The translations under genes and the position numbers were made by a program. Shown piece after piece: positions 23,572-56,969 of a stretch of DNA of 64,000 bases. Origin of the DNA: Naegleria gruberi (lineage: Eukaryota). The stretch is taken from NCBI GenBank assembly GCA_000004985.1, contig GG738861.1; one strand, given 5' to 3'. The notes under the pieces were generated by a model, which worked only from the letters and a program-made list of their open reading frames with translations, had not been told where the DNA came from and made no database searches. The stretch's first letter is position 1, and every line of letters starts with the position of its first letter.

Positions 23572-26500
23572 TTAAAGCATTAACAAGCACATCATGATTG
23601 AAACCAGTAAGGAAACACTGAACGAAATCATTGCAACGTTGTTGACACGAGCTGAAACCTTTGGAATAAAAGGAGCAGGAGAAGATTTTGGAGAGACAAC
23701 AGGTGTTGGAATAGCCTTTGGTTGAGCAGTTAACAAATATTTGCCAGTTGAAGAGACAGAAACAGTTACAGAGTTACTGGTCTTGGAAATGACTGAACAA
23801 CTGGTTGAGAGTTGATAATTATTGGTTGCTGAATTGTAAACTTGACAATAGACATCATATGCAGAAACCGATCTTGCCATTGTTATATCCTTTGAGGTAG
23901 AGAAGGTCAATTCGGCAATAGAACTTGAACTAGAAACGGTAACTGCAGATTTTTCAGCAAGAGAAATATCAAGAGCATCTGAAACAGAGTTGGTGACTCC
24001 GCCACTTGATGATTTTACCTTAAGAATGAGAGTCTTGTAATTAGAAACAAGATCAGAAAATTTAGCTGCCATTTTGAACTTATTTCCATTAATAATATCT
24101 TGTAAATTATTCAAAGTTGCAATATTGACCTTTCTTGAATAAGTAGTTGTTTGATTAGCAACAATATAGTTGGCTGGAAGGTCAGCAACTGTATCCTTAA
24201 CGAGAGCGCTTGATAAACTGTCATACGTAGCTTGAATATTAGTAATATCAGAATTGGAGAATGATCTCTTTGAAACACCCTTTGCTACAATAAATCTATA
24301 GAATTTATCAGCAGCTTCCTTCGCCTTTGTCAACAGTTCAGTAGCCAATTTAACTTCATCACTCGAAGCAGCATTAGCAGCAGTTTGAGCAAGATTGGTG
24401 ATCATCTTGGAAATAATGTCATCGACAATATATTCCAAACTTGAAGTACCAGAAGAAATCATTGACAATTTAGAGGAGGCAGAGTTAGTATTTTCAGAAG
24501 CAACAGATTGAGCCTTTGCTTGATTGTCCAAATAGGAAAGAATCATATTGGAAGTCAATTTTGCAATTTCAGCTTTTTGCTCAGCAGTTGCACCAGCAAT
24601 AGAGCTAACAACCTTAATGACAGCAGATACGGAAGCAAGGGTTGGTGTTTCCTTCGCAGTTGATTCAATAGAATTCACTGCTTGAGTGGTAGTTGGTTGA
24701 GTAACAGCTACAGAAATTTCAGATTCTGTAAATGCCAACTTGGAATCATAAACTGCAACTTTAAGACGGAGTTGAGAACTGCTTGAAGAAGGTAATTTGA
24801 TTCTTGTAGATCTAGTTTCAGTTCTCTCCGTCAATGCAGTCCAAGAGGATGAAATGTCATCATAATAGAAGAATTGATAGGTAAGTGGCAACTGAGAGTC
24901 TGTCCAACCATTTCCACATTTCAATTCGAATAAGGTACTGAGAGCAACACCAGATTGTGGACTAGCTTCGAAAATACCTCTTGTTGGAGGAGAGTTTACA
25001 TTAACACTTGTTGTAGCAACACCATTCTTTGAACCATCAGTAATATTCAAACTAATAGAGTATGAAGCGCCAGCACTCAACAATGATTTTGGAATCTTGA
25101 TAAAGCTGGAAGTTTGGGTGAGTGATGATAAATCAAACTTATCAGAGAACCAGAAGAAGGTTGGAGATGATAAAACTTCAAGAGAGGAATAGGTCAAATA
25201 CAAATCAGATGATGGGCTAACAAGTGAAAGATCGCTATTAGAAGTAATTGAAGCTCTAATCAAAGTATTCTTTGGAACGGACTTAGCTTTAACAATTAAA
25301 TTAGTTGATGCAGATCTTGATCCCTTAACAACAGTAGCAGTATACTTGTATTCACCAGCAGAGAGGAATGTGGAGAAGGTTCTTTGATTTAAATTTGGAG
25401 AAGAACATGACTTAATGTTGACAATATCAAAACATGTGATAGTGACAGTTTCTGAATCAGACGTACTACTTGGATCAACAACTGCAACAGAGAAATCCAA
25501 TGAATCTTGAGTTGATTGAGTAATGTCAGAAATGTTGAATTGAATAGTCAAATCTTGAGCTACAGCAGTTACCTTGAAAGGAAGAAATGCATCGTTAGCA
25601 TTGTCAGAAACAGCCCTAAGGATAAAGTAATAATCGCCTTCCTTATTAATATCAGTGAAGGATTTACCAATAGCGAATAAATTATTACTAGATTTTGGAG
25701 TTACAACTGATTTAGAGGCTGAAGAAGTATCAACAGAATAGGTATAATCAGTTTGATAATTTCCAGAATAACACTTTGGGAATTTGATGACTGGTGTCAA
25801 TACAATAGTAGATCCAATCATGTAAGTCACAGAAATACCTTCACTGAGTGATAGAGTTGGAACTGGATTGCTAACAACATTCACGGTAACACTTGATGTG
25901 GCAACTTTAGAGAATGCAGTTGTGACAGTAACTTGAATAATGAATGATCCACCAGAAATTGCACTCAATGAAGAGGAGCTGAAATCGACAATAGCGCTTG
26001 AAGTTTTAACACCACTCAAGTAAGTATTCAAAGCATTCATTTCACCAACAGTTGGACCGTTAGTGACATACCAAGAGAATAACAATGCACGACGATCTGA
26101 TGAAACTGATCCAGAAGCATCCAAATATAGAGTATCACACTTGGAAACAGAGCTCTTATCAGAAACTAGATTAACACTTGGAGGAAGTGCAACAAATGTA
26201 CCAGAAGAAACTGTAACAGACAATGTTTCAGCGCTTCCTGGGAATTTGAATAATCTCAAAGAATTACCTGGTACAATATTTGCACTGGTTCCTAATATAA
26301 TTTCCAAAGAGGAAGTTGCAGAATTCAAAATACATTTAGCATCAGAACCTATCAATGATAAATCAGAGCTAGAAATGACATCTGAACAATCTGATTGTTT
26401 CAATAAACTTGATTTGACTTCACCAATAATTGACCCACCAGTTGAAGTGAAAACAAAACTATTAGAATTAATTTGGAAATCACAATTGCTTCCAAACCAT

Positions 26501-28425
26501 CCATTCAAACACTTGGCACAATTACTGGAAGCATCAAAGTTTCCATAACAAGTACATGAGCCATCATTATTACAGTAACCTTTAGAGGAACAATTACTAA
26601 CACTATTACAAGTAATTGAGCAACTGGAACCAACAAATCCACTAGCACATTGATCACAATATGTACCAACAAAGTTACCTTCACAAACACATTTCAAATT
26701 AACACAATTACCTCTGGAATTACAAGTTTGAACTCTATCACAAACTGGAGTGTTACAATTAGCTCCTGAATAATCAAGTGAGCAGCTTGAACAAGATTTA
26801 CCATCATTGTAATTAATTGGACATGAACACTTATTAGGAGCTGAACAAATACCACGAGATGAACAAACACTAGAGCTTGACTTGTCAATTCCATAACAGC
26901 TAAACGTTTGACAAGCTGTACCATTATAACCTTCAGAACAATGACAGATATTTGGAGCAATACATGAACCCTTTCCAGAACAAACTCTATTATCGGTAGC
27001 ACTAATTTCAAAACAAACGGGAATATCACAATTATCACCAACAAAACCATCAACACATTTAGAACAAAACTTGGATGAATCAAAGTTACCATTACAAGAA
27101 CAAACATCCTTTGAAACACATGAACCTCTATACGAACATCCTCCTTGAGATTCACTCAATCCATTACAAGTAGTGTATTGACATCTATCACCAGTGTAAC
27201 CACTATTACATTCACAAGTATTTGGGGCAGTACAATTACCTTGTTTGTTACAACCAGATGTACCTGTTTGATTGTTACAAAGTGGAATAGTACAATCACT
27301 ACCAGTATATCCACTACCACAAACCATAACACTACACTGAGAACCAGTAAAACCTGGATAACAATCACATTGATCTTTTCCTATACATTTACCCTTACTT
27401 GAACAAACAGATGAAGAATTACTCAAAGTATTAAAACATCTTGTTTCAGAACAAGATGGACCTTCCCAACCACTCTTACATGAACATTGATTTAGTGATG
27501 AACAGTTACCATTAGATGAACAAACACTTGATTGATTGGCCAAAATACCAAAACATGAAGTAATTTCACACAACTTGCCATAGAATCCACTATTACATTG
27601 GCAAGTATTTGGACCAACACATTGACCATTTCTTGAACAAACAGTTTGATTGGAGTTGGTTAAACCAGAACAAGAATATGTTTGACATTCAGAACCAATG
27701 TAACCACTCTTACATAAACAGCTATCAACAGAAACACAAGTTCCTGATCCAGAACAAACAGATGAATCAGTAAAATTCTTTCCAAAACATTGATGAATCT
27801 GGCATTCTAATCCACTGTATCCATTATTACATTGACACATATCTTGAGAAATACAAGTACCTTGATTACAAGCTTCAGCTCTTGGCTTAGTGAAACATGT
27901 GATATTCTTTGAGACACAAGTATTTGGAGCAATACATGTATCGTATTGTCCACAGGATTGAGTTTCGTTAGCCAAATAATTATTGCAAATTGGCATGTTA
28001 CAAACACCAGCAGGTCCATAACCTGATTTACATTCGCACTTGTCAAAATCACTGCAGATACCTTTCGAAAAACAAACTTGAGGTGATTGAGAATCGATGC
28101 CATTACAAGTTGTAAAAGAACAATTGTCTCCGTGGTAATTTGTTGAGCAGATACAATCATCGAGACTAGAACATGAACCATGGGATGAACAAACCTTGGA
28201 ATCGTTAGCTGGAGTACCATAACAGGAAGGAATTTCACAGAATTTTCCAATAAATCCATTAACACATATACAACCGCCATCCAGACATGTTCCATTACCA
28301 TTACAGATATTTTCCAAATGAGTAGATCCACATTTAACTGGTTCTGGTTGTGGGGTTTCCGTTGTTGTTTCATTACAGAATGTTCCATTGATATTTGAGT
28401 TACAAATACAGACACCGTTCAACAA
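23572..28425 (-). CDS. C-terminal 1617 codons of a giant EGF / PKD-REJ-like surface protein with a GPI-signal-like hydrophobic end
   Basis: Long ORF. EGF modules are followed by YLDASGSVSSDRRALLFSWYV (PKD/REJ-like), a long Ser/Thr-rich region and the C-terminus VAMISFSVSLLVSIMMCLLML. The first residues (NGVCICNSNINGTFCNETT) continue the repeat of the upstream ORF, so the M at 28425 is not a real start. Confidence 0.8.
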   Translation of the reverse strand: MLNGVCICNSNINGTFCNETTTETPQPEPVKCGSTHLENICNGNGTCLDGGCICVNGFIGKFCEIPSCYGTPANDSKVCSSHGSCSSLDDCICSTNYHGDNCSFTTCNGIDSQSPQVCFSKGICSDFDKCECKSGYGPAGVCNMPICNNYLANETQSCGQYDTCIAPNTCVSKNITCFTKPRAEACNQGTCISQDMCQCNNGYSGLECQIHQCFGKNFTDSSVCSGSGTCVSVDSCLCKSGYIGSECQTYSCSGLTNSNQTVCSRNGQCVGPNTCQCNSGFYGKLCEITSCFGILANQSSVCSSNGNCSSLNQCSCKSGWEGPSCSETRCFNTLSNSSSVCSSKGKCIGKDQCDCYPGFTGSQCSVMVCGSGYTGSDCTIPLCNNQTGTSGCNKQGNCTAPNTCECNSGYTGDRCQYTTCNGLSESQGGCSYRGSCVSKDVCSCNGNFDSSKFCSKCVDGFVGDNCDIPVCFEISATDNRVCSGKGSCIAPNICHCSEGYNGTACQTFSCYGIDKSSSSVCSSRGICSAPNKCSCPINYNDGKSCSSCSLDYSGANCNTPVCDRVQTCNSRGNCVNLKCVCEGNFVGTYCDQCASGFVGSSCSITCNSVSNCSSKGYCNNDGSCTCYGNFDASSNCAKCLNGWFGSNCDFQINSNSFVFTSTGGSIIGEVKSSLLKQSDCSDVISSSDLSLIGSDAKCILNSATSSLEIILGTSANIVPGNSLRLFKFPGSAETLSVTVSSGTFVALPPSVNLVSDKSSVSKCDTLYLDASGSVSSDRRALLFSWYVTNGPTVGEMNALNTYLSGVKTSSAIVDFSSSSLSAISGGSFIIQVTVTTAFSKVATSSVTVNVVSNPVPTLSLSEGISVTYMIGSTIVLTPVIKFPKCYSGNYQTDYTYSVDTSSASKSVVTPKSSNNLFAIGKSFTDINKEGDYYFILRAVSDNANDAFLPFKVTAVAQDLTIQFNISDITQSTQDSLDFSVAVVDPSSTSDSETVTITCFDIVNIKSCSSPNLNQRTFSTFLSAGEYKYTATVVKGSRSASTNLIVKAKSVPKNTLIRASITSNSDLSLVSPSSDLYLTYSSLEVLSSPTFFWFSDKFDLSSLTQTSSFIKIPKSLLSAGASYSISLNITDGSKNGVATTSVNVNSPPTRGIFEASPQSGVALSTLFELKCGNGWTDSQLPLTYQFFYYDDISSSWTALTERTETRSTRIKLPSSSSSQLRLKVAVYDSKLAFTESEISVAVTQPTTTQAVNSIESTAKETPTLASVSAVIKVVSSIAGATAEQKAEIAKLTSNMILSYLDNQAKAQSVASENTNSASSKLSMISSGTSSLEYIVDDIISKMITNLAQTAANAASSDEVKLATELLTKAKEAADKFYRFIVAKGVSKRSFSNSDITNIQATYDSLSSALVKDTVADLPANYIVANQTTTYSRKVNIATLNNLQDIINGNKFKMAAKFSDLVSNYKTLILKVKSSSGGVTNSVSDALDISLAEKSAVTVSSSSSIAELTFSTSKDITMARSVSAYDVYCQVYNSATNNYQLSTSCSVISKTSNSVTVSVSSTGKYLLTAQPKAIPTPVVSPKSSPAPFIPKVSARVNNVAMISFSVSLLVSIMMCLLML

Positions 28426-28509: not shown

Positions 28510-31428
28510 TCATTGCAAATGTTCCGTTAACGTTGTATTGCAAATACAAATACCATTTACACATGTTCCGTTACCATAACAGGCATTTTCTTCCAATGTT
28601 TCACCACATTTAATTGGTTCAGGATGTGGGATAACTGGTTCTGTATTTGTTTCATTGCAATATGTACCATTAATGTTTGAATTACAAATACAGACACCAT
28701 TAATGCAAGTACCATTTCCATAACAAATATTTTCATATTCAGTGATACCACATTTAACAACTGGTTCTGGTTGAGGTGTTGGAGTTTCAGAAGTCTCATT
28801 ACAGAAGGTTCCATTAACGTTTGTATTACAAATACAAATACCATTTACGCATGTTCCATTTCCATAACAATTATTTTCCTCAATGGTTGTTCCACATTTA
28901 ATTGGTTCAGGTTGTGGAATTATTGGTTCAACAATGGTTTCATTACAGAAAGTACCGTTTGAGCCACCTAAACATGAACAAATACCATTCAAACAAGTTC
29001 CATTTCCATAACAATTATTTTCTTCAACGGTTGATCCACATTTAATTGGTTCAGGTTGGGGAATTGGAGTTTCTGGAGTTGTTTCATTACAGAATGTTCC
29101 GTTTACATTAGAGTTGCAAATACAAATACCATTTACACATGTTCCGTTACCATAACAGGCATTTTCTTCCAATGTTTCACCACATTTAATTGGTTCAGGA
29201 TGTGGAGTAACAGGTGCTGATGTTGTTTCATTACAATATGTACCATTAATGTTTGAATTACAAATACAGACACCATTCAAACAAGTTCCATTTCCATAAC
29301 AATTATTCTCATCTTCAGTGAAACCACATTTAACAACAGGTTCTGGTTGAGGCTCATGACTTGTTTCATTACAGAAGGTTCCATTAACGTTGGTAATACA
29401 AACACAAATACCATTCATGCAAGTTCCATTTCCATAACAATTATTTTCTTCAATGGTTGATCCACATTTAACTGGTTCAGTTGGAATTTGAGGTTCTGAA
29501 GCAGTTGTTTCATTACAGTATGTTCCGTTCATACCCTCAACACAGATGCACAATCCATCAAGACATGTGCCGTTACCATAACAATTGCTTTCTTCCTGAG
29601 TTGTACCACAAATAATTGGTTCAGGTTGTGGAGAATCAGAATTTGTTTCATTGCAATATGTACCATTTACGTTTGAATTACAAGCACAGACACCATTGAT
29701 GCAAGTTCCATTTCCGTAACAGTTGTTTTCTTCCATGGTTGATCCACATTTAACTGGTTCAGGATGAGGAATTGGAGTTTCAGGAGTTGTTTCATTACAG
29801 AATGTTCCGTTTACCTTTGAATCACAAACACAAATACCATTTAAACAGGTTCCATTACCGTAACAGTTATTTTCTTCCAATGTTTCACCACATTTGACAG
29901 GTTCTGGTTCTGGAGTAACTGGTTCTGTAGTTGTTTCATTGCAGAATGTGCCATTAACATTCTCAAAACATACACACAAGCCATCAACACAAGTACCATT
30001 TCCAAAACAGTTATTTTCTTCTTCGGTCGAACCACATTTAACTACTGGTTCTGGTTGAGTTGGATCTTGAGTTGTTTCGTTACAGAATGTACCATTCACG
30101 CCAATAAAACAAATACAAACACCCTCAATGCATGTACCGTTACCATAACAAGTATTTTCTTCTATAGTTTCACCACATTTGACAGGCTCAGGAACAACTG
30201 GATCTGGAGATGTTTCGTTACAGAATGTACCATTAATATTCTCGTTGCAAACACACAAACCATCAACACATGTTCCATTTCCGTAGCAGCTATTTTCTTC
30301 TGTTGTTTCGCCACATTTAATTGGTTGAGTTGGAACTTGAGGTTCAGTAGGATTAGTTTCGTTACAGAATGTACCATTAACATCTTGATTACAAACACAG
30401 AATCCATTTACACAACTTCCATTGTTGTAGCAATTATTCTCTTCCAAAGTTTCACCACATTGTAAAGGTTGTGGAATTTCAGGTTCTATATTTGATTCAT
30501 TACAGAATGTACCATTTGCGCCTTCTTTGCAAATACAGGAGCCACCAATACAAGTGCCATTACCATAGCAGTTATTTTCATCTTCTGTAAAACCACATTT
30601 AACTGGCTCTGGTTGAGTTGGGATTTCAGGAGCTGTTTCGTTACAGAAAGTACCATTAGCGCCTTCAATACAAACACACAGTCCATCAAGACATGTTCCA
30701 TTACCATAACAATTACTTTCTTCCTGAGTTGTACCACAAATAATTGGTTCAGGTTGGCTGGGAACTGGACTGGTTTCGTTACAGAATGTACCATTACTAC
30801 CTTCATTGCAAGTACAAAAACCATTCTCACACGTACCATTGCCATAACAATTATTCTCTTCTTCTGTAGTACCACATTTAACCAATTCTGGTTGTGGTTC
30901 CATGCTGAAGGTTTCATTACAAAATGTACCATTAACATTCTCGTTACAAATACACAAACCATCGACACATGTACCATTACCATAACAAATATTTTCATCT
31001 TCTGTGAAACCACAGTTAACTGGTTGAGTAGGGACTTGTGGTTCTTGAGTTGTTTCATTACAGAATGTACCATTCACACCTTCAATACATATGCAGAAAC
31101 CATCGACACATGTACCATTACCATAACAATTTTGTTCTTCCAATGTTTCACCACAAGTGGTAATGGTATCATTACAGAATAAACCAATGAAACCTTCTGA
31201 ACATTGACAAACACCACGAGTACAATTACCATTAGAATAGCAAGATTGTTCATCTAATGTTTCACCACAGAAAACATCCTGACATTCCATTGTACCCAAG
31301 AGGTCACATGTCTGGGACAATAAACATTCAGTGTCTGAACTGCATGTTGCTGATACGAGACCAACAGCAGCAATTACAGAAAGTACAATTAAAAGTATTG
31401 TTGTTTTGAACAGCAAGTTACTTGCCAT
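28510..31428 (-). CDS. N-terminal 972 codons of the same gene: signal peptide plus about 20 tandem 41-48-aa EGF-like modules with Pro/Thr/Glu linkers
   Basis: MASNLLFKTTILLIVLSVIAAVGLVSA is a signal peptide. The reiterated unit is KCGxTxEENNCYGNGTCxxGxCxCxxxVNGTFCNETT + PxPxPEPV. The frame ends inside a degenerate unit at about 28510. Confidence 0.8.
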   Translation of the reverse strand: MASNLLFKTTILLIVLSVIAAVGLVSATCSSDTECLLSQTCDLLGTMECQDVFCGETLDEQSCYSNGNCTRGVCQCSEGFIGLFCNDTITTCGETLEEQNCYGNGTCVDGFCICIEGVNGTFCNETTQEPQVPTQPVNCGFTEDENICYGNGTCVDGLCICNENVNGTFCNETFSMEPQPELVKCGTTEEENNCYGNGTCENGFCTCNEGSNGTFCNETSPVPSQPEPIICGTTQEESNCYGNGTCLDGLCVCIEGANGTFCNETAPEIPTQPEPVKCGFTEDENNCYGNGTCIGGSCICKEGANGTFCNESNIEPEIPQPLQCGETLEENNCYNNGSCVNGFCVCNQDVNGTFCNETNPTEPQVPTQPIKCGETTEENSCYGNGTCVDGLCVCNENINGTFCNETSPDPVVPEPVKCGETIEENTCYGNGTCIEGVCICFIGVNGTFCNETTQDPTQPEPVVKCGSTEEENNCFGNGTCVDGLCVCFENVNGTFCNETTTEPVTPEPEPVKCGETLEENNCYGNGTCLNGICVCDSKVNGTFCNETTPETPIPHPEPVKCGSTMEENNCYGNGTCINGVCACNSNVNGTYCNETNSDSPQPEPIICGTTQEESNCYGNGTCLDGLCICVEGMNGTYCNETTASEPQIPTEPVKCGSTIEENNCYGNGTCMNGICVCITNVNGTFCNETSHEPQPEPVVKCGFTEDENNCYGNGTCLNGVCICNSNINGTYCNETTSAPVTPHPEPIKCGETLEENACYGNGTCVNGICICNSNVNGTFCNETTPETPIPQPEPIKCGSTVEENNCYGNGTCLNGICSCLGGSNGTFCNETIVEPIIPQPEPIKCGTTIEENNCYGNGTCVNGICICNTNVNGTFCNETSETPTPQPEPVVKCGITEYENICYGNGTCINGVCICNSNINGTYCNETNTEPVIPHPEPIKCGETLEENACYGNGTCVNGICICNTTLTEHLQ

Positions 31429-32610: not shown

Positions 32611-32751
32611 ATTGCCCTATCATCATTGCAATAATATAATTAATGAAAGACTTCCAATACGGCCCAAACCATTTGCACCACCCAAACAATCAAGTTTGCG
32701 ATTGAAAGATTTTCAAGTTTGCGATTGACTCTTCAACACATAAAGTAAAGT

Positions 32752-34310
32752 ATTCAGATTGATTTTAATTTTACATAATAGTTTTATTACAAACAAGTTT
32801 TTGTTGTTTGTTTGGGAGAATTGAATTGTTTCAAAATCAATAGATTTAGAAACACTTTCTGTGGACAATACCTGGACCGGCATCCTCATATTCTTCCTTG
32901 GTGATCCACATTTGTTGGAAAGTGGACAATGAAGCCAAGATGGAACCACCAATCCAGACAGAGTACTTTCTTTCAGGTGGAGCAACAACCTTAATCTTCA
33001 TGGAAGCTGGAGCCATAGCAGTCAATTCCTTGGTCATTCTTTCAGCAATACCTTCGAACATAGTAGTACCACCAGACAAGACAACGTTACCGTACAAGTC
33101 CTTTCTGATATCAATATCACATTTACCAATAGAGTTGAAAGTAGTTTCATGAACACCAGCAGCTTCCATACCAATGAAGTTTGGTTGGAACAAAACTTCT
33201 GGACATCTGAATCTTTCATTACCAACAGTGATAACATTACCGTCTGGCAATTCGTATGACTTTTCAACAGATGATGATTCAGCAGCAACCTTCATTTCAG
33301 CTTCGAAATCCAAAGCAATATAACAGAGCTTTTCCTTAATATCTCTGACGATTTCTCTTTCAGCAGTAGTATTGAATGAGTAACCTCTTTCCATCAAAAT
33401 CTTCATCAAGTAATCAGTCAAATCACGGCCAGCCAAATCCAATCTCAAAATGGCGTGTGGCAAAGCATAACCTTCATAAATTGGAACAGTGTGGGAAACA
33501 CCATCACCAGAGTCCAAAACAATACCAGTGGTTCTACCAGAAGCATACAAGGACAAGACAGCTTGAATAGCGACATACATAGCTGGAACTGAGAAGGTTT
33601 CAAACATAATTTGAGTCATCTTTTCTCTGTTTGCCTTTGGATTCAAAGGAGCTTCAGTCAACAAGACTGGGTGTTCTTCTGGAGCAACTCTCAATTCATT
33701 GTAGAAAGTGTGATGCCAGATCTTTTCCATATCGTCCCAATTGGTAACAATACCGTGTTCAATTGGATACTTCAAAGTCAAAATACCTCTCTTTGATTGA
33801 GCTTCATCACCAACATAGGCATCCTTATTACCCATACCAACCATAATGGACTTTTGCTTTGGTCTACCAATAATTGAAGGGAAGACAGCTCTTGGAGCAT
33901 CATCACCAGCAAAACCAGCTTTACACATACCAGAACCGTTATCGACAACGAGGGCTTGAACGTCTTCACAGAATGACATTTTATAGATTATTTGAATGGA
34001 TTTGTTTTTTTTGATTTTTAATTGATGATTTGTGTGTTAAAAAAATATTTAAATGAAAAATTAATGAAAGAATGATTGATGTGATTGATGGCAAGTCAAA
34101 TTGAAGTTTTAAAAAACTATTTTAGAGGTCATTTTTTAAATGTGGAAAGTCAAGTGAAGAAGAACAACTTTACAATATGACTTTTCATTCTTTTCATTCA
34201 ACACATCATCAAAATTACTAGCAATCAACTGTAAAATTTAACACATCAAACATTGCTTTGTCAACTTACTGTAATTTTCAACGTGGAAAAAATTCATCAA
34301 GTTTGAATGA
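32752..34310. repeat. Left arm of the actin inverted duplication
   Basis: Reverse complement aligns with 40167-41707 across the CDS, about 330 bp of 5' flank and about 95 bp of 3' flank. Confidence 0.9.
32846..33979 (-). CDS. Actin (conventional, 377 aa), intronless
   Basis: Full-length ORF with canonical actin sequence throughout ([23 protein letters not shown] ... [40 protein letters not shown]). Confidence 0.97.
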
Positions 34311-37153: not shown

Positions 37154-38180
37154 ATGTCATATCTTCAACTCCCCACAGAGATGCACCACCAGATTCTATC
37201 CTATTTATCACCTTTTTGTGAATTATTCCACAATCAAATTGGTGGAAAACACTTGGATCCATTTATAAAGTTCATTCCGATAATATTGAACTTTCGATTG
37301 ATTCATCCAAATTATTCGAAATTAATTTCAAAATATGTAGATGAATTTTGTTGGAGTTTATTTGGAAATATGATGGATACTTATTCGATAGAACCCAAAG
37401 AAATTGATTTATTGAAAATTAAATTCACCAAAATTGGAATTGTGAAAAGTTTTGGTTCCTTTATTCATCTGATTCGAACAAGAGAAAAACAAATCCGATT
37501 CATCAGAAATTAAACTCTTTCTACTGGGAAGTGTGTACAGTGGCAAAACCTCAATTATTAAGAGATTTGTTTATAATCAGTTCACACAAGGTTATGAATC
37601 ACCTTCCTGTTTTTATGAAGAATTCAAACAAACAATTTCTATAGATCAAAGAGAAGAATCCATACTCTTAATAGATTCATTTGGGATCCTTAGTCGTTTC
37701 CTTCCATTTGAAGAACGTTATTATTGTAAAAAGATTAATTTCAATGTTTTGGTAATTGTTTGCTCAATGACGGAATATGAAAGTTTGCATGATTTGAAAC
37801 AAATATTGAGGAGATTTGTGGATGATAAGGGATTGAATGCTCCTTGTGTTGTGGCCATTAATAAGTGTGATCTTTTTCATCATTGTGTGGTTGATATAAG
37901 GGAGGTTAATGAAATTGTGGAAAATTTTGGATTGACTGATTATAAAATTATGGAGACGAGTGCAAAAACAGGAAAGAATATTGAAGAATTAGTGGAAGAA
38001 TGTGTTAGAAAGTTTAGAGAACGATTGAGAGATGTAAAAAGTGTTGTAGAACAAGTTCTGTTATTGGATCAAGAGGAGAAAGATGACAGAATGAGTATTT
38101 ACAAGATGGTGTTTATACCTCTTTGCTTTCTTTGGAATTTGATACTAAACTCGATTTTTCTCTGGAAGCTTAATGAATAG
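37154..38180 (+). CDS. F-box-like N-terminus joined to a Ras/Rab-like small GTPase with a hydrophobic C-terminal tail (2-exon model, 330 aa)
   Basis: Exon 1 (37154-37448) carries LPTEMHHQILSYLSP (F-box-like). A 34-nt GT..AG intron at 37449-37482 joins it in frame to 37483-38180. The GTPase P-loop LLGSVYSGKTS begins upstream of the track's GTG 'start' at 37533. G3 is LIDSFG, G4 is NKCD, G5 is ETSAK, and the tail is MVFIPLCFLWNLILNSIFLW. Confidence 0.5.
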
Positions 38181-38627: not shown

Positions 38628-38632
38628 AAAAA
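38628..38632 (-). terminator. Pol III terminator (T5) downstream of the tRNA-Asp 3' fragment
   Basis: In minus-strand sense: ...CACTCGA G ATTAATTTTTAAC. Confidence 0.6.
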
Positions 38633-38637
38633 TTAAT

Positions 38638-39092
38638 CTCGAGTGCCGGGAATTGAATTTCCTAATTTGGAAGATGACTTCAACAACCAAATAACAATAA
38701 TAAATTGGGTTATTAAATTAATGTTTATTAAATAGTGACCGTTAGGTCACTGATTGTTAATTAATTATTGATGATGATTTGTTGTTGAACAGATACTAAC
38801 CACCACCGATTGTTGTCATAATATTAAACACAGAGTAATCACCGTGTCGCCAAATTCCTTGATAATTATTCATAACTGTAACTTCTTGATCAAAAGGCAC
38901 TCGAGCAATAAACAATTTGATTTCACACAGCCAAAACTCTCGTTCATACTTTGGGTACCGGGAATGAAATTTCCAAATAAGGAATGACCGATATCATTCA
39001 ACTATTACTAACTCATACTCACACTAACAAAACAAATTGAACCCGGGTCGCCAGAGTGACAGTCTGGAATGCTACCACTATACCACACCCGA
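38638..39092 (-). tRNA. tRNA-Asp(GUC) gene split in the T-loop by a 377-bp insertion
   Basis: 5' part, 39092->39035: TCGGGTGTGGTATAGTGGTAGCATTCCAGACTGTCACTCTGGCGACCCGGGTTCAATT (A box, anticodon loop CTGTCAC). 3' part, 38657->38638: TTCAATTCCCGGCACTCGAG. Joining them at the duplicated TTCAATT gives a 71-nt cloverleaf with a 7-bp acceptor stem (one G-U) and the T stem CCGGG/CCCGG. Confidence 0.85.
38658..39034. mobile_element. Insertion in the T-loop of tRNA-Asp (377 bp, non-coding)
   Basis: Flanked by a direct TTCAATT on both sides. Its ends are homologous to those of the tRNA-Gly insertion. It contains the pseudo-T-arm motif GGAAATTTCATTCCCGGTACCCAA (38952-38980, minus sense) and the hairpin AGTGACC-GTTA-GGTCACT (38734-38751). 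Confidence 0.7.
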
Positions 39093-40166: not shown

Positions 40167-41707
40167 AACTTGATGAATTTTTTCCATGTTGAAAATTACA
40201 GTAAGTTGTTAATTGCAATGTTTGCTGATTGTTTGCTCGTAATGTTTGATGATGTGTTGAATGAAAATAATGAAAAGTCATATTGTAAAGTTGTTCTTCT
40301 TCACTTGACTTTCCACATTTAAAAAATGACCTCTAAAATAGTTTTTTAAACTTCAATTTGACTTGCCATCAATCACATCAATCATTCTATCATTAATTTT
40401 TCATTTAAATATTTTTTTAACACACAAATCATCAATTAAAAATCAAAAAAAAACAAATCCATTCAAATTCTATAAAAATGTCATTCTGTGAAGACGTTCA
40501 AGCCCTCGTTGTCGATAACGGTTCTGGTATGTGTAAAGCTGGTTTTGCTGGTGATGATGCTCCAAGAGCTGTCTTCCCTTCAATTATTGGTAGACCAAAG
40601 CAAAAGTCCATTATGGTTGGTATGGGTAATAAGGATGCCTATGTTGGTGATGAAGCTCAATCCAAGAGAGGTATTTTAACTTTGAAGTATCCAATTGAAC
40701 ACGGTATTGTTACCAATTGGGATGATATGGAAAAGATCTGGCATCACACTTTCTACAATGAATTGAGAGTTGCTCCAGAAGAACATCCAGTCTTGTTGAC
40801 TGAAGCTCCTTTGAATCCAAAGGCCAATAGAGAAAAGATGACTCAAATTATGTTTGAAACTTTCTCAGTTCCAGCTATGTACGTCGCTATTCAAGCTGTC
40901 TTGTCCTTGTATGCTTCTGGTAGAACTACTGGTATTGTTTTGGACTCTGGTGATGGTGTTTCCCACACTGTTCCTATCTATGAAGGTTATGCTTTGCCAC
41001 ACGCCATCTTGAGATTGGATTTGGCTGGTCGTGATTTGACTGATTATTTGATGAAGATTTTGATGGAAAGAGGTTATTCATTCAATACTACTGCTGAAAG
41101 AGAAATTGTCAGAGATATTAAGGAAAAGCTCTGTTATATTGCTTTGGATTTCGAAGCTGAAATGAAGGTTGCTGCTGAATCATCATCAGTTGAAAAGTCA
41201 TACGAATTGCCAGATGGTAATGTTATCACTGTTGGTAACGAAAGATTCAGATGTCCAGAAGTCTTGTTCCAACCAAACTTCATTGGTATGGAAGCTGCTG
41301 GTGTTCATGAAACTACTTTCAACTCCATTGGTAAATGTGATATTGACATCAGAAAGGACTTGTACGGTAACGTTGTCTTGTCTGGTGGTACTACTATGTT
41401 CGAAGGTATTGCTGAAAGAATGACCAAGGAATTGACTGCTATGGCTCCTGCTTCAATGAAGATTAAGGTTGTTGCTCCACCTGAAAGAAAGTACTCTGTC
41501 TGGATTGGTGGTTCCATCTTGGCTTCATTGTCCACTTTCCAACAAATGTGGATCACAAAGGAAGAATATGAGGATGCCGGTCCAGGTATTGTTCACAGAA
41601 AGTGTTTCTAAATCTATTGATTTTGAAACAATTCAATTCTCCCAAACAAACAACAAAAACTTGTTTGTAATAAAACTATTATGTAAAATTAAAATCAATC
41701 TGAATAC
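40167..41707. repeat. Right arm of the actin inverted duplication
   Basis: See the left arm (32752-34310). Confidence 0.9.
40478..41611 (+). CDS. Actin (conventional, 377 aa), intronless; protein identical to the 32846-33979 copy
   Basis: The ORF translation is identical residue for residue to the other copy. The nucleotide differences I counted are all third-position and synonymous. Confidence 0.97.
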
Positions 41708-42004
41708 TTTTTGTGTTGCGAAAGAGAAATTGAAATCTTTAACAAACTTCGAATAGGTTCAAAGTTATTATAGACAAAACTTGGAAATGAACTAAATTAA
41801 TCTTCCCTTAAATCAAAAAGATTCTCATTTACTCTCAAGCCCTTAAATAGTCATCATCAACATGTTGACTCTCTCTCGAATATTCGTCATCACCAACAGC
41901 ACGGAAGTTTAGGATGACGCACAAAAAGATATTATTCGTAAATAATGTACTTATGAATAAAATATATTTGGATCTATTCAAAAGGATCTAAAATAGAAAA
42001 AAAA

Positions 42005-44138
42005 ATGAGCAAACAAGAATTGCAGGAAACCATTGAAAAATCAACTAGCAAGACTGCTGCTGATGAGAGCAGTTTTGAAGAGGAAGAACATGAGGATATC
42101 ACTGCAGATGAACAAGTATTGCAAGATTTTTACAAGAAGGAAGCTCAGATTAAACAAGCTACTAAACCAAAGGAAGAAAAGCCGGTTGCTGCTTCTACTT
42201 ATGAAGATCAGGGAGAAGGTGCACATATGATTGAAATGCCATTAGATAAAACTAAGCTTTCCAAGACTGATATTAGGTCATTGCACAAAGATGAAGTAAA
42301 ACAAGCTAGAAAGGAATTGGACAAGCTTCCGAAGCCTCAAACTTTCCCAAATCATGCTGAAATTAGTTTCTTTGGTGCTTCAGGTACTGTTACTGGTAGT
42401 AAGCACATGATTACTTATGGATCTTTGAATGCTTTGATTGATTGCGGAATGTATCAAGGTTTGAAGGAACTTAGGTATGTTTTTTAATTCTTTCATTTGT
42501 TTTAATTAGATTAATTATCAAAGAGAGAGAAACTGGAAATTAATTTCATCATCAAAACCTGTTGAAACAATGTGTGATGCCATCATTATTACTCACTCTC
42601 ACTTGGATCACACTGGTTATCTTCCAAGGTATGTTTTTTATACAATGTTTTGATACAAATGAAAATTAAAACTATCAAAAATCATCAATCGGAATGAATA
42701 ATTTAATCTTCAATCATCATAATAATATCAAAATAGAATGGTTGCTCTTGGATTTACTGGACCAATCTACATGACAGAACAAACATTTAATTTGACCAAA
42801 CTAATCTTGTTGGATTCTGCTCGTTTACAAGAAGAAGATGCTCACTATGCCAATCACAAAGAAACTACTAAACATGAGGTTGCCCTTCCACTCTATTCCG
42901 AAGAAGATGTTCTCAACTGTTTCAAGTTGGTGAGAACTGTCAAGTATGGAGAAAAAATTGTTGTTAAAAGTAGATTGGATGAAGACAAATTCAGCTTTAA
43001 ATACTTTAATGCAGGACACTTGTTGGGATCATCGTTTGTTGAAATTACTCTTGACACAAAGGAAAAGATTATCTTTTCAGGAGATTTGGGAACTTTCCAC
43101 ACCTCCACTCCAATGCAACAACAACCTCAATTACCAATGGGAGCTGATTATGTTATTTGTGAAGCTACTTATGGTGGCAAGTCACACATTGATTTTGCAA
43201 CTGGTAGAGCTGCTGAGGATCAAGATTACATTATTGAAACTAAGGTTAAACCAGCGTTGAAACAAGCTGTTGAACATATTGTGGAAAATGATGGTGTAAT
43301 TCTTATTCCAGCTTTTGCCATTGGTCGTTCTCAAACTATTGCTTATCACTTGTTAAAGATGATGAGAGAGAAGGAAATTCCAACACTTCCTGTCCACATG
43401 AACTCTCCAATGTCAGTTGAAGCTCTTGATTTTTATCAACAATATTTATTGGACGAACATCAAAAGGATGCACACGAAATTTTGAGAGATGTCATTTGCC
43501 ATAATAGTGCTAAGGAATCTAAGGAACTTCACAAAAAGCTCAAGGATGGTTATTCTAAATGTGTCATTATCAGTAGTAGTGGTATGATGACAGGTGGTCG
43601 TTGTTTATTCCACTTTGAAGAATTGGCTCCTCATGAAAAGAACGTTCTCTTATTGAGTGGTTTCCAAGCTGAAGGTACAAGAGGTAGAGACTTGCTTAAT
43701 GGTGTCAGAGATATCAAATTATTGGGCAAGACTGTCAATGTTAAATGCCAAGTCATGCAAGTCCAAGGTTTGTCTGCTCACGGTGATACTGATGATGTTA
43801 TTAAATGGATTGAGGCTGCCAAAAATCCAAAACCAAAGATGGTTTTCGTTGTCCACGGAGAACCAACCTCACTCCGTAGTATGGCTAGAGAAATTTGTGT
43901 TGAATTGGATGTTAATGCTCTCGTTCCAAAGAGAGGTACAACATTCCACATGAGAACTGAACTCTCCTTCAGTCACAGTAGAAGAGCTAGTGTTGTTTCA
44001 ACCAATAACAGTTTACAAGATGTCATTTCAAGCAATATGCCTGATATTCCAAAACTTGGAAAGACCAATATGGTTCACGTGATGTATGCTGGTATTATTT
44101 TAATTGCCTTTATTGCCTTCCTTTTAAGATTCTTTTAA
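42005..44138 (+). CDS. Beta-CASP metallo-beta-lactamase-fold nuclease (bacterial-type), 658 aa, 3 exons, C-terminal TM anchor
   Basis: join(42005..42474, 42524..42628, 42737..44138), with both junctions in phase. Motifs: FFGASGTVTGSKHMI, DCGMYQGLKELR|ERNW, IIITHSHLDHTGYLPR, FVVHGEP. The acidic/Lys-rich N-extension is about 120 aa. The C-terminus is MVHVMYAGIILIAFIAFLLRFF. Confidence 0.8.
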
Positions 44139-55241: not shown

Positions 55242-55271
55242 GTAACTGGTTTGCGTCGACCGGGAATTGAA

Positions 55272-56605
55272 ATTTCCTTTTTTGGAATTCATTTAACTTT
55301 TAATTTTATGATGAAATTATGAATTATTTATTTTAATATTATTCATGATGTGAAACATCATGTTGAATTCTGTTCATTATTTTTAATTCATGATGTGAAA
55401 CATCATGTTGAATTATTAACAAATGTTGTTCTTCAATTTTTCATTGAATGTTGTTCTTTCAATGAATGTTGGAATAAGTGTCCAGTATATGATAGAATTG
55501 TTAATACAAGTAAGTTTTCTATTATTTTATATTTATTAATTGACTCACGGGTAATGGAATTTCCTTTTTTGTAAATCATCATGATTGATGATGATTGATG
55601 ATGATTAAATAATAATAATTTATTATTTTATAGATGATGGTACAATTAGATTTGTTAGTACATATCCTAATTGTATTTTAAAGAAAGAAAATTCACCAAC
55701 TAAAATTGAAGATATTATTCGTGAATATGAAGATGTAAAAGTTGTTTTAAATGAATTAGGTAAATCAACAACAAAAATTTATTCATCAGATACAACAAAA
55801 CATATGAATTTCCTAAAAGTTTTATTTATTTATGTAATGGTAATATTAAATATGATCAATCATTAAATATATCACAAGGAATTTATACAATTAAAATTCA
55901 AGATGATGAACATGATCACAAATATTATTATTTATTCGGAAGAGGTTTATTATTTCTATCAATTACATTACAAATGATTCCAACATTTAGTTTAAACAAG
56001 TATTATTATGAAATTGTATTGAATGATTTAAGTAACACATATTTTGATAAGAATGAAATTATTCAATATAAAATTGAAATTTTGCCATCAAATATTATTC
56101 AACAATATTCTAAACGAAAGTTTCTTGTTAGAAAAGATAGTCAAAAGAACTCAAGATTTATTACATATCAACCTGACGCTCAATCACCATCAAAGAAAAC
56201 AAAGAAGAATAACATTATTGAAAGTGATATTGAAGATTTCGATTGCAATATTAAAGATATTGATGATTGGGTATAGGGAAACGGAATTTCCTAATTGGGA
56301 ATGTCATCACACAATAAATTAAATTTATTATTTATTCATTGATGTTCACAAACTGTGAATTAACACATTACATGATGAAACAATTCAAACATTTACTCAA
56401 ACTTTAAACATTAACCATCGGGTAACGGATTTTAATACATGTACTAGTATGTTTATTAATTGGTCGACGCACATAAATTTAAATAAACAAAATTAACAAG
56501 ATTTTAAACAAAATCCTACATAGAGTTGGAGAACGGGAAATGAAATTCCCAAATTGAAATTGAGAAACAACTATTCATTTCACAATAATTCATACTATCA
56601 AAATG
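55272..56605. mobile_element. Compound insertion in the T-loop of tRNA-Gly (1334 bp)
   Basis: Flanked by a direct TTCAATT. The 56277-56605 part is homologous to the whole tRNA-Asp insertion. Extra copies of the pseudo-T-arm motif start at about 55546, 56274, 56416 and 56530. It contains AT-rich open frames on the plus strand. Confidence 0.7.
55764..56276 (+). CDS. Longest open frame inside the tRNA-Gly insertion (171 codons, first ATG at 55974); function unknown
   Basis: Open frame ...LCNGNIKYDQSLNISQGIYTIKIQDDEHDHKYYYLFGRG...KKTKKNNIIESDIEDFDCNIKDIDDWV. A possible upstream exon at 55634-55759 follows a GTAAGT...TAG intron at 55510-55633. No transposase, integrase or RT motif is recognisable. 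Confidence 0.25.
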   Translation: MNNKNLFIRYNKTYEFPKSFIYLCNGNIKYDQSLNISQGIYTIKIQDDEHDHKYYYLFGRGLLFLSITLQMIPTFSLNKYYYEIVLNDLSNTYFDKNEIIQYKIEILPSNIIQQYSKRKFLVRKDSQKNSRFITYQPDAQSPSKKTKKNNIIESDIEDFDCNIKDIDDWV

Positions 56606-56969
56606 AATTGAACCCGGGTCACGGCGATGGCAACGCCGTATTCTACCACTAAACCATCGACGCTTCTTGTTAAGATATTAAGGTTCCTTAATTTAATATA
56701 AGGAATATCCAAAATGCTTAAAGTACAACACAACAAGAATTGAGTATTCGTTTGAACATGCTGTAAAATATTTCAAATTATGCTAAGATCATTTGATGTA
56801 TTTAATGCCATAGGGCATTGAGAGCCATCATTTGAAGATTCAAATAGTATGTTCTTGATTTTATCTGATAAAGCACAAGAATAACATTTCATCCACTAAA
56901 TTTTATAAATGTTGACTGTGTTACATAATAGTATTTAATTATTATTGAAATGAGGATAACAATAAATTA

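Follow-up and report, generated by a model that had tools for sequence, protein, structure and literature searches.

The tRNA-Asp(GUC) gene studied here lies in a 64-kb stretch of Naegleria gruberi DNA (the window) and breaks off inside its T-loop, with its 3' end displaced further on in the same orientation. This raises the question of whether it is a disrupted gene or a very unusual one that needs processing. The first-pass annotation had described the split and offered both alternatives, and its coordinates and sequences, including the TTCAATT at each junction, proved correct to the base (Table 1). The best explanation is probably that a 377-bp non-autonomous mobile element entered the T-loop of an ordinary nuclear tRNA-Asp(GUC) gene, duplicated TTCAATT and inactivated the gene. 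The element would belong to a family that recognises the T-arm CCGGG-TTCAATT-CCCGG and enters it at a fixed position and in a fixed orientation. The window has a GC content of 33%, and its actin and beta-CASP genes place it in Naegleria.

Anatomy of the two split tRNA genes

The tRNA-Asp 5' part holds the 5' strand of the acceptor, the D arm, the anticodon arm, the variable loop, the 5' strand of the T-stem and the T-loop. On the unmodified locus ARAGORN finds no tRNA, introns allowed. Comparing the locus with and without the insert, a check proposed in the first-pass annotation, recovers the gene after removal only: when the insert and one TTCAATT are deleted in silico, ARAGORN calls a 71-nt tRNA-Asp(gtc) with a G4.U69 pair. 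An uninterrupted form of the gene is present in an environmental Naegleria-like contig (L006), where an intact tRNA-Asp(GTC) has the same acceptor (TCGGGTG/CACTCGA-G) and the same T-arm. Because this gene shares both, the matching of the two tRNA-Asp halves is not due to chance. It carries a 12-nt intron exactly at 37/38, which makes the earlier contrast with eukaryotic introns at that position an apt one. The 19-nt 3' fragment, for which an origin in another tRNA gene had been considered, is not part of one, because the element tail TTCCAAATTAGGAAA precedes it.

tRNA-Gly(GCC) is the sole other tRNA gene in the window, and its split was overlooked by the first-pass annotation. It lies 17.5 kb from the split tRNA-Asp gene and is broken at the same T-loop position, with insertion position and orientation identical; both tRNA 5' parts in the window (2/2, Asp and Gly) are interrupted by an insert. 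The outer junctions of the Gly insert both carry TTCAATT (7 bp), and ARAGORN calls tRNA-Gly(gcc) when the halves are joined. The 72-nt tRNA-Gly that it calls at 56593-56664 is a false, forced fit, and at the 5' part the Rfam tRNA model scores 21.2 bits, below its gathering score of 29. Genes interrupted in this way are missed or mis-called by tRNA finders, and the tDNA counts of Naegleria may therefore be distorted. When ARAGORN is run with long introns over the window, its 20 calls are all noise.

The Gly insert begins with E1, and the remainder comprises about 627 nt with plus-strand ORFs, of which no paralogue is present in the window, and an E2-like unit. The tail of the latter (55350-55261, ending AAAAAAGGAAAT) repeats its head (55639-55548, with the pseudo-3' end TTCCATTACCCGTGAGTCAA) at 72%. 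The presence of a third element copy in this insert, in inverted orientation, was considered and rejected, with just an 18/21 match and an extension within the shuffle range.

Table 1. Positions of the split tRNA genes, their inserts and the features within them
Feature	Position	Strand	Remarks
tRNA-Asp(GUC) 5' part, 58 nt	39035..39092	(-)	ends CCGGGTTCAATT; A-box TAGTGGTAG present
Left TTCAATT copy (7-bp duplication, tRNA-Asp T-loop)	39041->39035	(-)	
Asp insert, 377 nt, non-coding	38658..39034	(-)	starts TGTTTTG, ends TTCCAAATTAGGAAA
T4 run at Asp insert positions 3-6, likely Pol III stop	39029..39032	(-)	
5' direct repeat of element, Asp copy	38951..39034	(-)	repeat D2
Pseudo T-loop/T-stem/acceptor TTTCATTCCCGGTACCCAA, Asp element	38969->38951	(-)	orientation of the gene
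Host-specific cassette GCTCGAGTGCC, Asp copy	38896..38906	(-)	
Sense stretch TGGCGACACGG, Asp copy	38842..38852	(-)	repeat D9
Perfect hairpin GTGACC-TAAC-GGTCAC, Asp element body	38735..38750	(-)	read from sequence
Element 3' tail TTCCAAATTAGGAAA, near-palindrome	38658..38672	(-)	conserved in Gly copy as TTCCCAATTAGGAAA
Right TTCAATT copy and displaced tRNA-Asp 3' part	38638..38657	(-)	TTCAATT = 38657->38651
Displaced tRNA-Asp 3' part CCCGG-CACTCGA-G	38650->38638	(-)	
T5 run, native Pol III terminator of tRNA-Asp gene	38628..38632	(-)	
tRNA-Gly(GCC) 5' part, 58 nt	56606..56663	(-)	ends CCGGGTTCAATT
Gly insert, 1334 nt total	55272..56605	(-)	
E1, 319 nt, full-length homologue of Asp insert	56287..56605	(-)	starts CATTTTG
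E1 pseudo-3' end TTTCATTTCCCGTTCTCCAA	56545->56526	(-)	
Host-specific cassette GTGCGTCGACC, Gly copy (E1)	56462..56472	(-)	
Sense stretch CCGTTACCCG, Gly copy	56419..56428	(-)	9/10 identical to tRNA-Gly positions 40-49
E1 tail TTCCCAATTAGGAAA	56301->56287	(-)	
Rest of Gly insert, after E1	55272..56286	(-)	
Foreign pseudo tRNA 3' end TTCCGTTTCCCTATACCCAA	56286->56267	(-)	flanks E1 on 3' side
E2-like unit in Gly insert	55639->55272	(-)	
TTCAATT and displaced tRNA-Gly 3' part CCCGG-TCGACGC-A	55252..55271	(-)	then terminator ACTTTTC

The locus sits in repeat-rich subtelomeric DNA and has an arm of a 1.47-kb inverted repeat on either side, a setting that lends some weight to an assembly or scaffolding artefact joining unrelated pieces. 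However, an artefact would not yield an exact 7-bp duplication with perfectly complementary halves, nor would it do so a second time, with a homologous insert at another locus and a match between each insert and its own host tRNA. The junctions contain no Ns and no abrupt change in composition, and an artefact is extremely improbable here.

A genuine T-loop intervening sequence, or a split gene, would yield a functional tRNA-Asp after processing of the transcript, whether by the tRNA splicing endonuclease, by self-splicing or through a reaction in trans. The state of the genes is consistent with this, as neither half of either gene has a disruptive change, and compensatory pairs are kept in comparison with Willaertia. 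Both tRNA genes of the window carry an insert, and noncanonical and permuted tRNA genes are known in archaea and Cyanidioschyzon. The cassette described below would form an 11-bp helix with the 3' exon, a pairing that might organise the reaction. However, T4 runs occur at insert positions 3-6 in both loci, with 2 to 13 more downstream (those in the Asp insert at positions 99 and 140), and the native tRNA-Gly terminator is itself T4 only. The inserts are far apart in length (377 vs 1334 nt), and the longer one is a composite that includes ORFs and foreign tRNA-like ends. Rfam gives no match, intron and ribozyme families included, up to E = 10 at the Asp locus or E = 1 at the Gly locus, truncated tRNA aside, the inserts fold no better than shuffles (z = -1.4), and co-folding of the junctions gives no bulge-helix-bulge. 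The relatives' genes are uninterrupted in the T-loop, with a normal 37/38 intron in Asp. Reading the Asp insert as an intron is very unlikely. A group I or II self-splicing intron and a retrozyme-like ribozyme element were also rejected, with no catalytic core by Rfam and an ordinary fold.

Of the two alternatives offered at first, the unusual gene needing processing is not supported, given the T4 runs, the Rfam result, the ordinary fold and the missing bulge-helix-bulge, and the disrupted gene is supported by the repeat family at a second tRNA gene, the 7-bp duplication and the intact relative. The undamaged halves, set against old-looking composite inserts, would fit a recent insertion of already diverged elements; selection would fit as well.

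The disrupted tRNA-Asp copy appears to be dead, since a TTTT starts at insert position 3 and the B box, which reads GGTTCAATTTG in place of ...TCC, is damaged. Pol III, if it initiates, should stop at this TTTT, and reads ending ...UUCAAUUUGUUUU would show termination inside the insert. N. gruberi has about 924 tDNAs (PMC2888827), and the loss of this copy is therefore presumably harmless.

Among the relatives searched for an empty or occupied site, L002 and L004 end before the locus, L003 (N. fowleri) and L008 (Willaertia) are non-syntenic, and in L007 the sequence diverges before the tRNA. The Willaertia sequence does contain an intact tRNA-Gly(GCC) with the same acceptor. A metagenome scan returned one bacterial chance match (L005) and one useful contig, L006. 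The junction 17-mer gave chance matches only in bacterial and archaeal genomes and viral contigs, with about 70 expected in 596 Gb.

The element family and its host-matched blocks

The Asp insert and E1 are homologous over their whole length, with an alignment score of 122 against at most 57 in 100 shuffles and nhmmer E values of 7.8e-96 and 3.4e-65 for the two copies. Scans with nhmmer and motifs over the window and the Naegleria and Willaertia loci gave these two known copies only, and the evidence base consists of two full copies, both in one 64-kb subtelomeric window; neither an autonomous partner nor an empty site from a second N. gruberi strain was recovered. The target T-arm CCGGG-TTCAATT-CCCGG is identical in tRNA-Asp and tRNA-Gly, with a 5-bp inverted repeat and a 7-bp spacer. 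About 62 nt of the 5' direct repeat in the Asp copy are homologous to the element's own 3' tail, and the two terminal repeats of one copy differ more from each other than either does from the corresponding repeat of the other copy. Both copies end in AA, the Gly copy starts with CA, and terminal inverted repeats are absent from both. Near the place where the body of the Asp copy has the perfect hairpin GTGACC-TAAC-GGTCAC, the Gly copy has a different one, TTCACA-GTT-TGTGAA. The element contains neither an A nor a B box. Further copies would be expected to show a split tRNA 5' part that ends GGTTCAATT without CC after it, the tail/T-arm junction AGGAAA[T]TTCAATTCCCGG, and the termini NNTTTTG... 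and ...AGGAAA.

Host-tRNA-matched sequences inside each copy are a new feature of this family. The Asp cassette is the exact 11-nt reverse complement of tRNA-Asp positions 64-73 and C74 of CCA (10 nt is reached by 3/5000 shuffles), and the Gly cassette is the exact reverse complement of tRNA-Gly positions 64-73 and C74 (4/5000 shuffles). Positions 40-50 of tRNA-Asp, which form the left flank of the insertion site, are matched at 10/11 by the sense stretch of the Asp copy, and cassettes and sense stretches occupy homologous positions in the two copies. Each copy has 3-4 segments of its host tRNA versus 0.5 expected (0/40 shuffles), and non-host tRNAs match at background level. In both genes the genomic flank has A where the cassette matches C74 of the mature tRNA, and since the cassette matches C74 and not the flank, there is a hint of an RNA step. 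Counted from the left end of the element, the inverted copy of the right target flank is about 129 nt in, whereas the motif in the flank itself starts 3 nt from the duplication; near the element's right end no direct copy of the target flank was found.

Another reading, in which the cassette would begin a second, decayed copy of the 5' part of the host tRNA, was rejected. The complement of the 3' strand fits 11/11, and the fit extends to the anti-discriminator base, to A opposite U69 and to CC opposite G64-G65. As a copy of the tRNA 5' strand the cassette has at most 7/9 matches, and the D and anticodon regions show no similarity.

The host-matched blocks most likely take part in choosing or holding the target. 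If upheld by a genome-wide census, the host matching would point to target choice or priming by base pairing.

Possible modes of mobility

No transposase domain is present in the large ORFs of the 64-kb window. With no linked gene for a transposase, reverse transcriptase or recombinase, the element is classed here by its anatomy alone. Among the modes of mobility, the comparison of anatomies favours Dada-type cut-and-paste DNA transposition, though at somewhat less than even confidence. It is favoured because of the 6-7-bp duplications, the fixed sites in multicopy small-RNA genes and the absence of terminal inverted repeats, and also because of the inverted target copies on the element, the carried-along ancestral flanks and the chimeric flanks. 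The presence of TTCAATTTTCAATT or small scars in tRNA genes would mean cut-and-paste, and that of 5'-truncated copies would mean retrotransposition.

A site-specific non-autonomous retroelement, SINE-like or LTR-like and copied through RNA, is a possibility of lower weight, both among these modes and as an explanation in its own right. The cassette would then be a primer-binding site for the 3' end of the cognate mature tRNA, which would prime reverse transcription, be recorded in the copy and possibly steer integration to its own gene. Complementarity to positions 64-73 and C74 in both copies, where the genomic flank has A, is consistent with this, and primer-binding sites of 10-12 nt have a precedent in Ty1. 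The pairing ends at C74, however, with C75 and A76 unpaired (T before the cassette, not GG-T), so that the tRNA 3'-OH could not prime as in retroviruses. The purine-rich tails (AGGAAA, AAAAAAGGAAA) might serve as a 3' end for priming at a nicked T-loop. Against a retroelement, poly(A) is absent and the 5' end is precise and complete in each copy. Inside the element, a tRNA 3'-end-like sequence is followed by a T-run, as read-through of a donor tRNA would give, and the pseudo-tRNA 3' end could be a flank transduced from an earlier host gene. The divergence pattern of the terminal repeats, in contrast, implies that they are not regenerated each round as LTRs are, TG...CA termini are absent, and the window has no reverse transcriptase.

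More specific retroelement types were tried and rejected. A yeast solo LTR, suggested at first by the GC content of 33%, was dropped because the window belongs to Naegleria and because of its termini and duplication length. A solo LTR or LTR retrotransposon does not agree with the CA start of the Gly copy, the AA ends or the duplication of 7 bp, not 4-6 bp. The terminal repeats are moreover older than the split between the two copies, and the cassette pairs through C74 only. A tRNA-derived SINE would have an A/B-box head, whereas the tRNA-like pieces here are a 3' end, an inverted 3' end and the stretch of positions 40-50.

Conservative site-specific recombination is improbable, as an overall account and as a mode of the mobile element, where a tyrosine-recombinase element ranks last of the three. 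The T-arm would be the core site, the TTCAATT copies would be the crossover region and not a target-site duplication, and the pseudo-tRNA 3' end would be the degenerate remains of a sequence that once took the place of the gene's own 3' end in attP fashion. In keeping with this, the target is perfectly symmetric, exactly 7 bases are identical at both junctions, the near-palindromic tail adjoins the junction, and the element carries T-loop/T-stem/acceptor-like sequence in the orientation of the gene. However, the pseudo-3' end lies 62 nt from the junction, and the gene is therefore not restored. The reconstructed attP core AGGAAA-TTCAATT-TGTTTT is asymmetric, no recombinase gene is linked, and the host-specific inverted cassette is left unexplained. 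The T-loop is a classical site for prokaryotic integrases, but we know of no eukaryotic tyrosine-recombinase element that targets tRNA genes. For N. gruberi, candidate tyrosine-recombinase elements of DIRS-like type have been reported (PMC3266345).

Comparison with known systems

Elements at a fixed position inside small-RNA genes are rare, and those described in the available portions of the literature are R2-type retrotransposons and Dada DNA transposons. The same portions describe no fixed-site small-RNA-gene element from Heterolobosea, and entry into a T-loop was not found described in them either.

Dada elements, according to the available portions of two accounts (Kojima and Jurka 2013, PMC3706591; Kojima 2022, PMC8869645), occupy a fixed position inside multicopy small-RNA genes, tRNA genes included, make 6-7-bp duplications and lack terminal inverted repeats. 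They have short inverted repeats with one arm also in the target gene beside the duplication, often lie between fragments of two different tRNA genes with the ancestral flank carried along, and thrive where tRNA genes are very numerous, the protist Perkinsus being one such host. Different tRNA species with a site in common can serve a single family, and the tRNA target sites given in these portions are nucleotides 8-13 and the anticodon-stem region, with the T-loop not among them (PMC3706591, PMC8869645). The Naegleria element resembles Dada in the 7-bp TTCAATT duplication and in one fixed T-loop site in multicopy tRNA genes, but has no linked transposase or other protein. Its inverted target copy lies about 129 nt from the end, whereas that of Dada is, in the available accounts, sub-terminal and at the same distance as in the target. 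Its blocks also vary with the host tRNA, and one includes C74, which is absent from the gene.

R2 (28S rDNA), Mutsu (5S) and Keno and Utopia (U2) are given in the available text as sequence-specific non-LTR retrotransposons (PMC3706591, PMC4640811). The likeness to these lies in a fixed site and orientation in a multicopy RNA gene, a copy harmlessly inactivated, and short purine- or A-rich 3' ends. In R2-type elements, target-derived sequence at the RNA ends aids annealing to the target. They encode reverse transcriptase and endonuclease and are commonly 5'-truncated, whereas both Naegleria copies, at 320-380 nt, are full-length and code for no protein; they have direct repeats at their ends and, in the interior, a cassette complementary to tRNA.

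TRE5, TRE3, DGLT-A, Skipper-2 and NLTR of dictyostelids and Ty1 and Ty3 of yeast also target tRNA genes, but land about 4-100 bp up- or downstream via Pol III factors and leave the gene intact (PMC5006619, PMC5911963). The Naegleria element likewise has its safe haven in tRNA genes, within the gene-dense genome of a protist, but it enters the T-loop and breaks the gene. An assignment to the dictyostelid tRNA-targeting retrotransposons was rejected, as those never insert inside the gene.

T-loop sublocations are classical integration sites of prokaryotic tyrosine integrase elements. The Naegleria family has in common with these a 7-nt T-loop between a symmetric T-stem, an identical short core at both junctions and tRNA 3'-end-like sequence. 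Prokaryotic elements, in contrast, code for an integrase and bring a 3' part of their own that makes the gene whole again; the Naegleria element does neither, and its host is a eukaryote. The family suggests that the symmetric T-arm, a classical landing pad of prokaryotic integrases, is exploitable in a eukaryotic nucleus too.

Noncanonical tRNA genes include those with archaeal T-arm introns, the split tRNAs of Nanoarchaeum and the permuted tRNAs of the red alga Cyanidioschyzon, and in these too the coding sequence is interrupted outside 37/38. They need a bulge-helix-bulge and short or separately transcribed pieces, whereas the Naegleria inserts of 377 and 1334 nt have internal Pol III stop signals and the relatives' genes are uninterrupted.

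It is conceivable, though unlikely, that the element picks its tRNA gene by base pairing and not solely via a protein, with blocks that match both flanks of the insertion site. A conserved scaffold would then carry exchangeable blocks, with either the cognate tRNA or the gene for it serving as primer or guide. An exchange of blocks, like the one that sets the Asp copy apart from the Gly copy, would redirect the element to a different tRNA. If true, a mobile element of a eukaryotic nucleus would be guided specifically to tRNA genes by nucleic acid, and target choice by base pairing would be a new mechanism among eukaryotic nuclear elements, and one that could potentially be reprogrammed. The likeness to IS110 bridge RNAs and to the exon-binding sites of group II introns would be one of logic, in that both strands around the insertion point are read.

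Two tRNA genes split at one T-loop position

The first-pass annotation had described a tRNA-Asp(GUC) gene split inside its T-loop, with TTCAATT at both junctions, and regarded it as either a disrupted gene or a very unusual one needing processing. All of its coordinates proved right when the minus-strand sequence was re-read. Even with introns allowed, ARAGORN finds no tRNA in the unedited locus, and deletion of the insert plus one TTCAATT yields a 71-nt tRNA-Asp(gtc) with a G4.U69 pair, confirming the split.

tRNA-Gly(GCC) at 56593-56664 is the sole ARAGORN tRNA call in the window, and scores 21.2 bits against an Rfam tRNA gathering score of 29. The last 13 nt of this 72-nt tRNA-Gly(gcc) call are insert sequence, and the call is a forced fit on a truncated gene. 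Such mis-calls could distort Naegleria tDNA counts; 924 tDNAs are reported for N. gruberi (PMC2888827). The true 3' end lies 1334 nt further downstream of the clean 5' part with AAAAAAGGAAAT immediately before it, and the joined halves are called as tRNA-Gly(gcc) by ARAGORN. A scan of the 64 kb for an A box plus T-arm found tRNA 5' parts for Asp and Gly only, and the break in both genes falls at one and the same nucleotide of an identical T-arm, with one orientation.

The 377-nt Asp insert is homologous to E1, which comprises the initial 319 nt of the Gly insert, along the whole length of both (global alignment score 122, at most 57 in 100 shuffles; nhmmer E = 7.8e-96 and 3.4e-65 for the two copies), and conservation covers the first ~17 nt (NNTTTTGNTAGTNTGA), the block ATTTGGRAATTTCATTYCC and the tail TTCCNAATTAGGAAA. 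They form a family of short non-coding elements that occupy one fixed T-loop position in two different tRNA genes with a 7-bp junction repeat. Further copies were absent from the window and from the few Naegleria and Willaertia loci examined; the junction 17-mer has only chance matches in prokaryotic and viral collections, and no literature report of such elements in Naegleria was found.

The Gly insert is composite: beyond E1 it has plus-strand ORFs, a second element-like unit and another two pseudo tRNA 3' ends. The reading frames in its middle (55640-56266, e.g. 55974-56276, 100 aa) match nothing in Pfam and lack paralogues in the rest of the window; they could represent captured host DNA or what is left of an element gene. 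Plus-strand 55639-55659 matches the Asp 5' junction (GGTTCAATT|TGTTTTGTTAGT), inverted, at 18 of 21 positions; extension of the homology is not significant, and the match may be a short relic or chance.

An exotic intron is very unlikely on several grounds. Both inserts carry TTTT at positions 3-6, with two additional T4 runs in the Asp insert and 13 in the Gly insert, and Pol III would be expected to stop there since the native tRNA-Gly terminator is only T4. The B box is altered from GGTTCAATTCC to GGTTCAATTTG or GGTTCAATTCA. Neither insert contains an Rfam family, group I/II introns and small ribozymes included, the fold of the Asp locus does not stand out from shuffled sequences (z = -1.4), and co-folding of the two junctions gives no bulge-helix-bulge. 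The inserts also differ 3.5-fold in length, and that in tRNA-Gly is composite. Of the two original readings, the disrupted gene is the one supported, given a repeat family with the same T-loop site in tRNA-Gly.

Uninterrupted counterparts of both genes are present in other DNA. A metagenome scan with the tRNA-Asp 3' fragment matched a bacterial contig (L005, by chance) and an AT-rich eukaryotic contig (L006), which has an unbroken tRNA-Asp(GTC) with acceptor stem and T-arm (CCGGG-TTCAATT-CCCGG) as in N. gruberi, a 12-nt intron at 37/38 and a long T-run. Willaertia (L008) has two intact tRNA-Gly(GCC) genes whose acceptor halves are exactly as joined for N. gruberi, with a compensatory anticodon-stem change. 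These intact genes indicate that the split state is derived from a gene with one TTCAATT. As to the tRNA-Asp locus itself, sequences from relatives end too early or lack synteny. Adjoining the intact tRNA-Asp of L006 (~812-765, minus strand) is a ~50-nt tRNA-like minihelix (CTGTAC...CCAGG-TTCAATT-CCCGG-TACAG) followed by T6, and its 3' end (CCCGGTAC...) is similar to the pseudo-3' end inside the Naegleria element.

Element anatomy and host-matched blocks

Features of the split genes and of the element, the latter described on the tRNA-sense strand
Feature	Position	Strand	Sequence or description
tRNA-Asp 5' part	39092->39035	minus	TCGGGTG-TG-GTAT-AGTGGTA-GCAT-T-CCAGA-CTGTCAC-TCTGG-CGAC-CCGGG-TTCAATT
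Asp insert	39034->38658	minus	377 nt, start TGTTTTG, end TTCCAAATTAGGAAA
tRNA-Asp 3' part	38657->38638	minus	TTCAATT-CCCGG-CACTCGA-G
Sequence after tRNA-Asp 3' part	directly after 38638	minus	ATTAATTTTT
tRNA-Gly(GCC) 5' part	56663->56606	minus	58 nt, end CCGGGTTCAATT, then CATTTTG
E1	56605->56287	minus	319 nt
tRNA-Gly true 3' end	55271->55252	minus	TTCAATT-CCCGG-TCGACGC-A, terminator ACTTTTC
Element start	both copies		NNTTTTG
5' direct repeat			~60 nt homologous to the element's own tail, then pseudo T-loop/T-stem/acceptor; TTTCATTCCCGGTACCCAA (Asp), TTTCATTTCCCGTTCTCCAA (E1)
Segment with T-run	between 5' repeat and cassette		~45 nt
Cassette, Asp	38906->38896	minus	GCTCGAGTGCC, after TG
Cassette, Gly	56472->56462	minus	GTGCGTCGACC, after TG
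Sense stretch	32-42 nt beyond cassette		resembles host positions ~40-50
Hairpin	body		perfect 6 bp, sequence not the same in the two copies
Tail			near-palindrome TTCC-AAATTA-GGAA-A

The element has no terminal inverted repeats. Its 5' direct repeat corresponds to the 3' tail plus whatever comes after it. What comes next differs between the loci: the Asp 3' repeat directly adjoins the genuine tRNA-Asp 3' part, whereas E1 in the Gly locus has a further TACCCAA-type pseudo-3' end (TTCCGTTTCCCTATACCCAA) behind it in place of the end of tRNA-Gly. Between copies, the 5' repeats are closer to one another than either is to the 3' repeat of its own copy, so the terminal repeat is inherited and not renewed with every insertion. 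A retroelement could account for the purine-rich tails, but is weakened by the lack of homogenisation between the terminal repeats and by the complete 5' ends of both copies.

In both copies the cassette, an 11-nt inverted block, corresponds without mismatch to the reverse complement of G64 to the discriminator in the tRNA of its own host gene, and the match reaches 11 nt when the first C of the post-transcriptional CCA is included; the genomic flank at that position is A in both genes. At least 10 complementary bases arose by chance in 3/5000 (Asp) and 4/5000 (Gly) shuffles. A copy of the 5' acceptor strand is excluded by the A opposite U69 in Asp (G4 in the gene) and, in both copies, by the CC opposite G64-G65 (U8-G9 in the gene) and the discriminator complement at the cassette start. 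The C74 match would also suit a retroelement, but the pairing ends before C75-A76, and this origin is weakened.

Taken singly, the second block (TGGCGACACGG in the Asp copy, CCGTTACCCG in the Gly copy) is marginal, its score being reached in 30/500 and 25/500 shuffles; the two blocks lie at homologous positions with four own-host-specific bases in each. When all segments of 10 nt or longer with no more than one mismatch are counted, either tRNA matches its own element 3-4 times vs 0.5 expected (0/40 shuffles), and the other element at background only. Each copy thus carries, within an otherwise shared scaffold, the right flank of its insertion site in inverted form and part of the left flank in sense orientation. 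We could not obtain these host-matched blocks from any standard insertion mechanism and regard them as the feature that truly calls for explanation.

Chromosomal setting

At its very start the window has 92 CCCAAA units in tandem (1-554; TTTGGG is the telomere repeat on the other strand), indicating a chromosome end. The ORF 56970-58682 is 100% identical to N. gruberi NAEGRDRAFT_79278. Very large subtelomeric ORFs are clustered at 2770-8016, 13198-20900, 23572-28425 and 28510-31428, with teneurin-type EGF repeats, REJ domains and internal tandem repeats of 117-426 bp. GC falls to 25-26% in 20000-24000, where long ORFs overlapping on both strands (21245-22609, 21552-22655, 21570-22622) suggest low-complexity sequence.

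The split tRNA-Asp sits in the ~6-kb spacer of a 1.47-kb inverted repeat (32747-34213 and 40245-41710, 98-99% identity), each arm with an intronless actin gene (32846-33979 minus, 40478-41611 plus); inversion of the spacer is possible in principle. The environmental contig L007 is 98% identical to 37513-38144, and its positions 632-936 part abruptly from the window at 38145 onward, being unrelated to it and containing a helix-turn-helix-like ORF. The break, beside a Ras-like gene, reflects either structural polymorphism (another transposon, possibly) or chimeric assembly. A beta-CASP / metallo-beta-lactamase RNase-like gene lies at 42005-44138, and over 42738-44138 shows 80% identity to the N. 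fowleri and 68% to the Willaertia magna homologue. Beyond these genera its best matches come from bacteria (Acidobacteriota and others, 35-40% identity), which makes horizontal acquisition a possibility.

Likely mode of insertion and known analogues

The best interpretation of the locus is that a T-loop-specific mobile element inactivated one copy of a highly multicopy tRNA gene, rather than that the gene holds an exotic intron. A tyrosine-recombinase element would agree with the symmetry of the target and with the 7-bp core, yet no such enzyme is linked to it. One close published analogue is the Dada DNA transposons, which make 6-7-bp duplications at fixed sites within tRNA, snRNA and 5S genes, lack terminal inverted repeats, and have short inverted repeats with one arm also in the target beside the duplication (PMC3706591, PMC8869645). 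Several tRNAs are usable by one family, and ancestral flank sequence is carried along; the two flanks often belong to different tRNA genes, an observation that the authors put down to one-ended transposition. Dada is found in a protist and in genomes rich in tRNA genes (PMC3706591, PMC8869645).

Since the anatomy parallels these features, Dada-like cut-and-paste transposition is favoured by analogy, with the Naegleria element as a putative non-autonomous derivative. Against this, no transposase is linked to the element, its inverted target copy is not sub-terminal, and a T-loop site is not described for Dada in the available text (PMC3706591, PMC8869645). The element belongs among the known target-specific elements inside small-RNA genes, to which it adds a T-loop site, a heterolobosean host and host-matched internal blocks.
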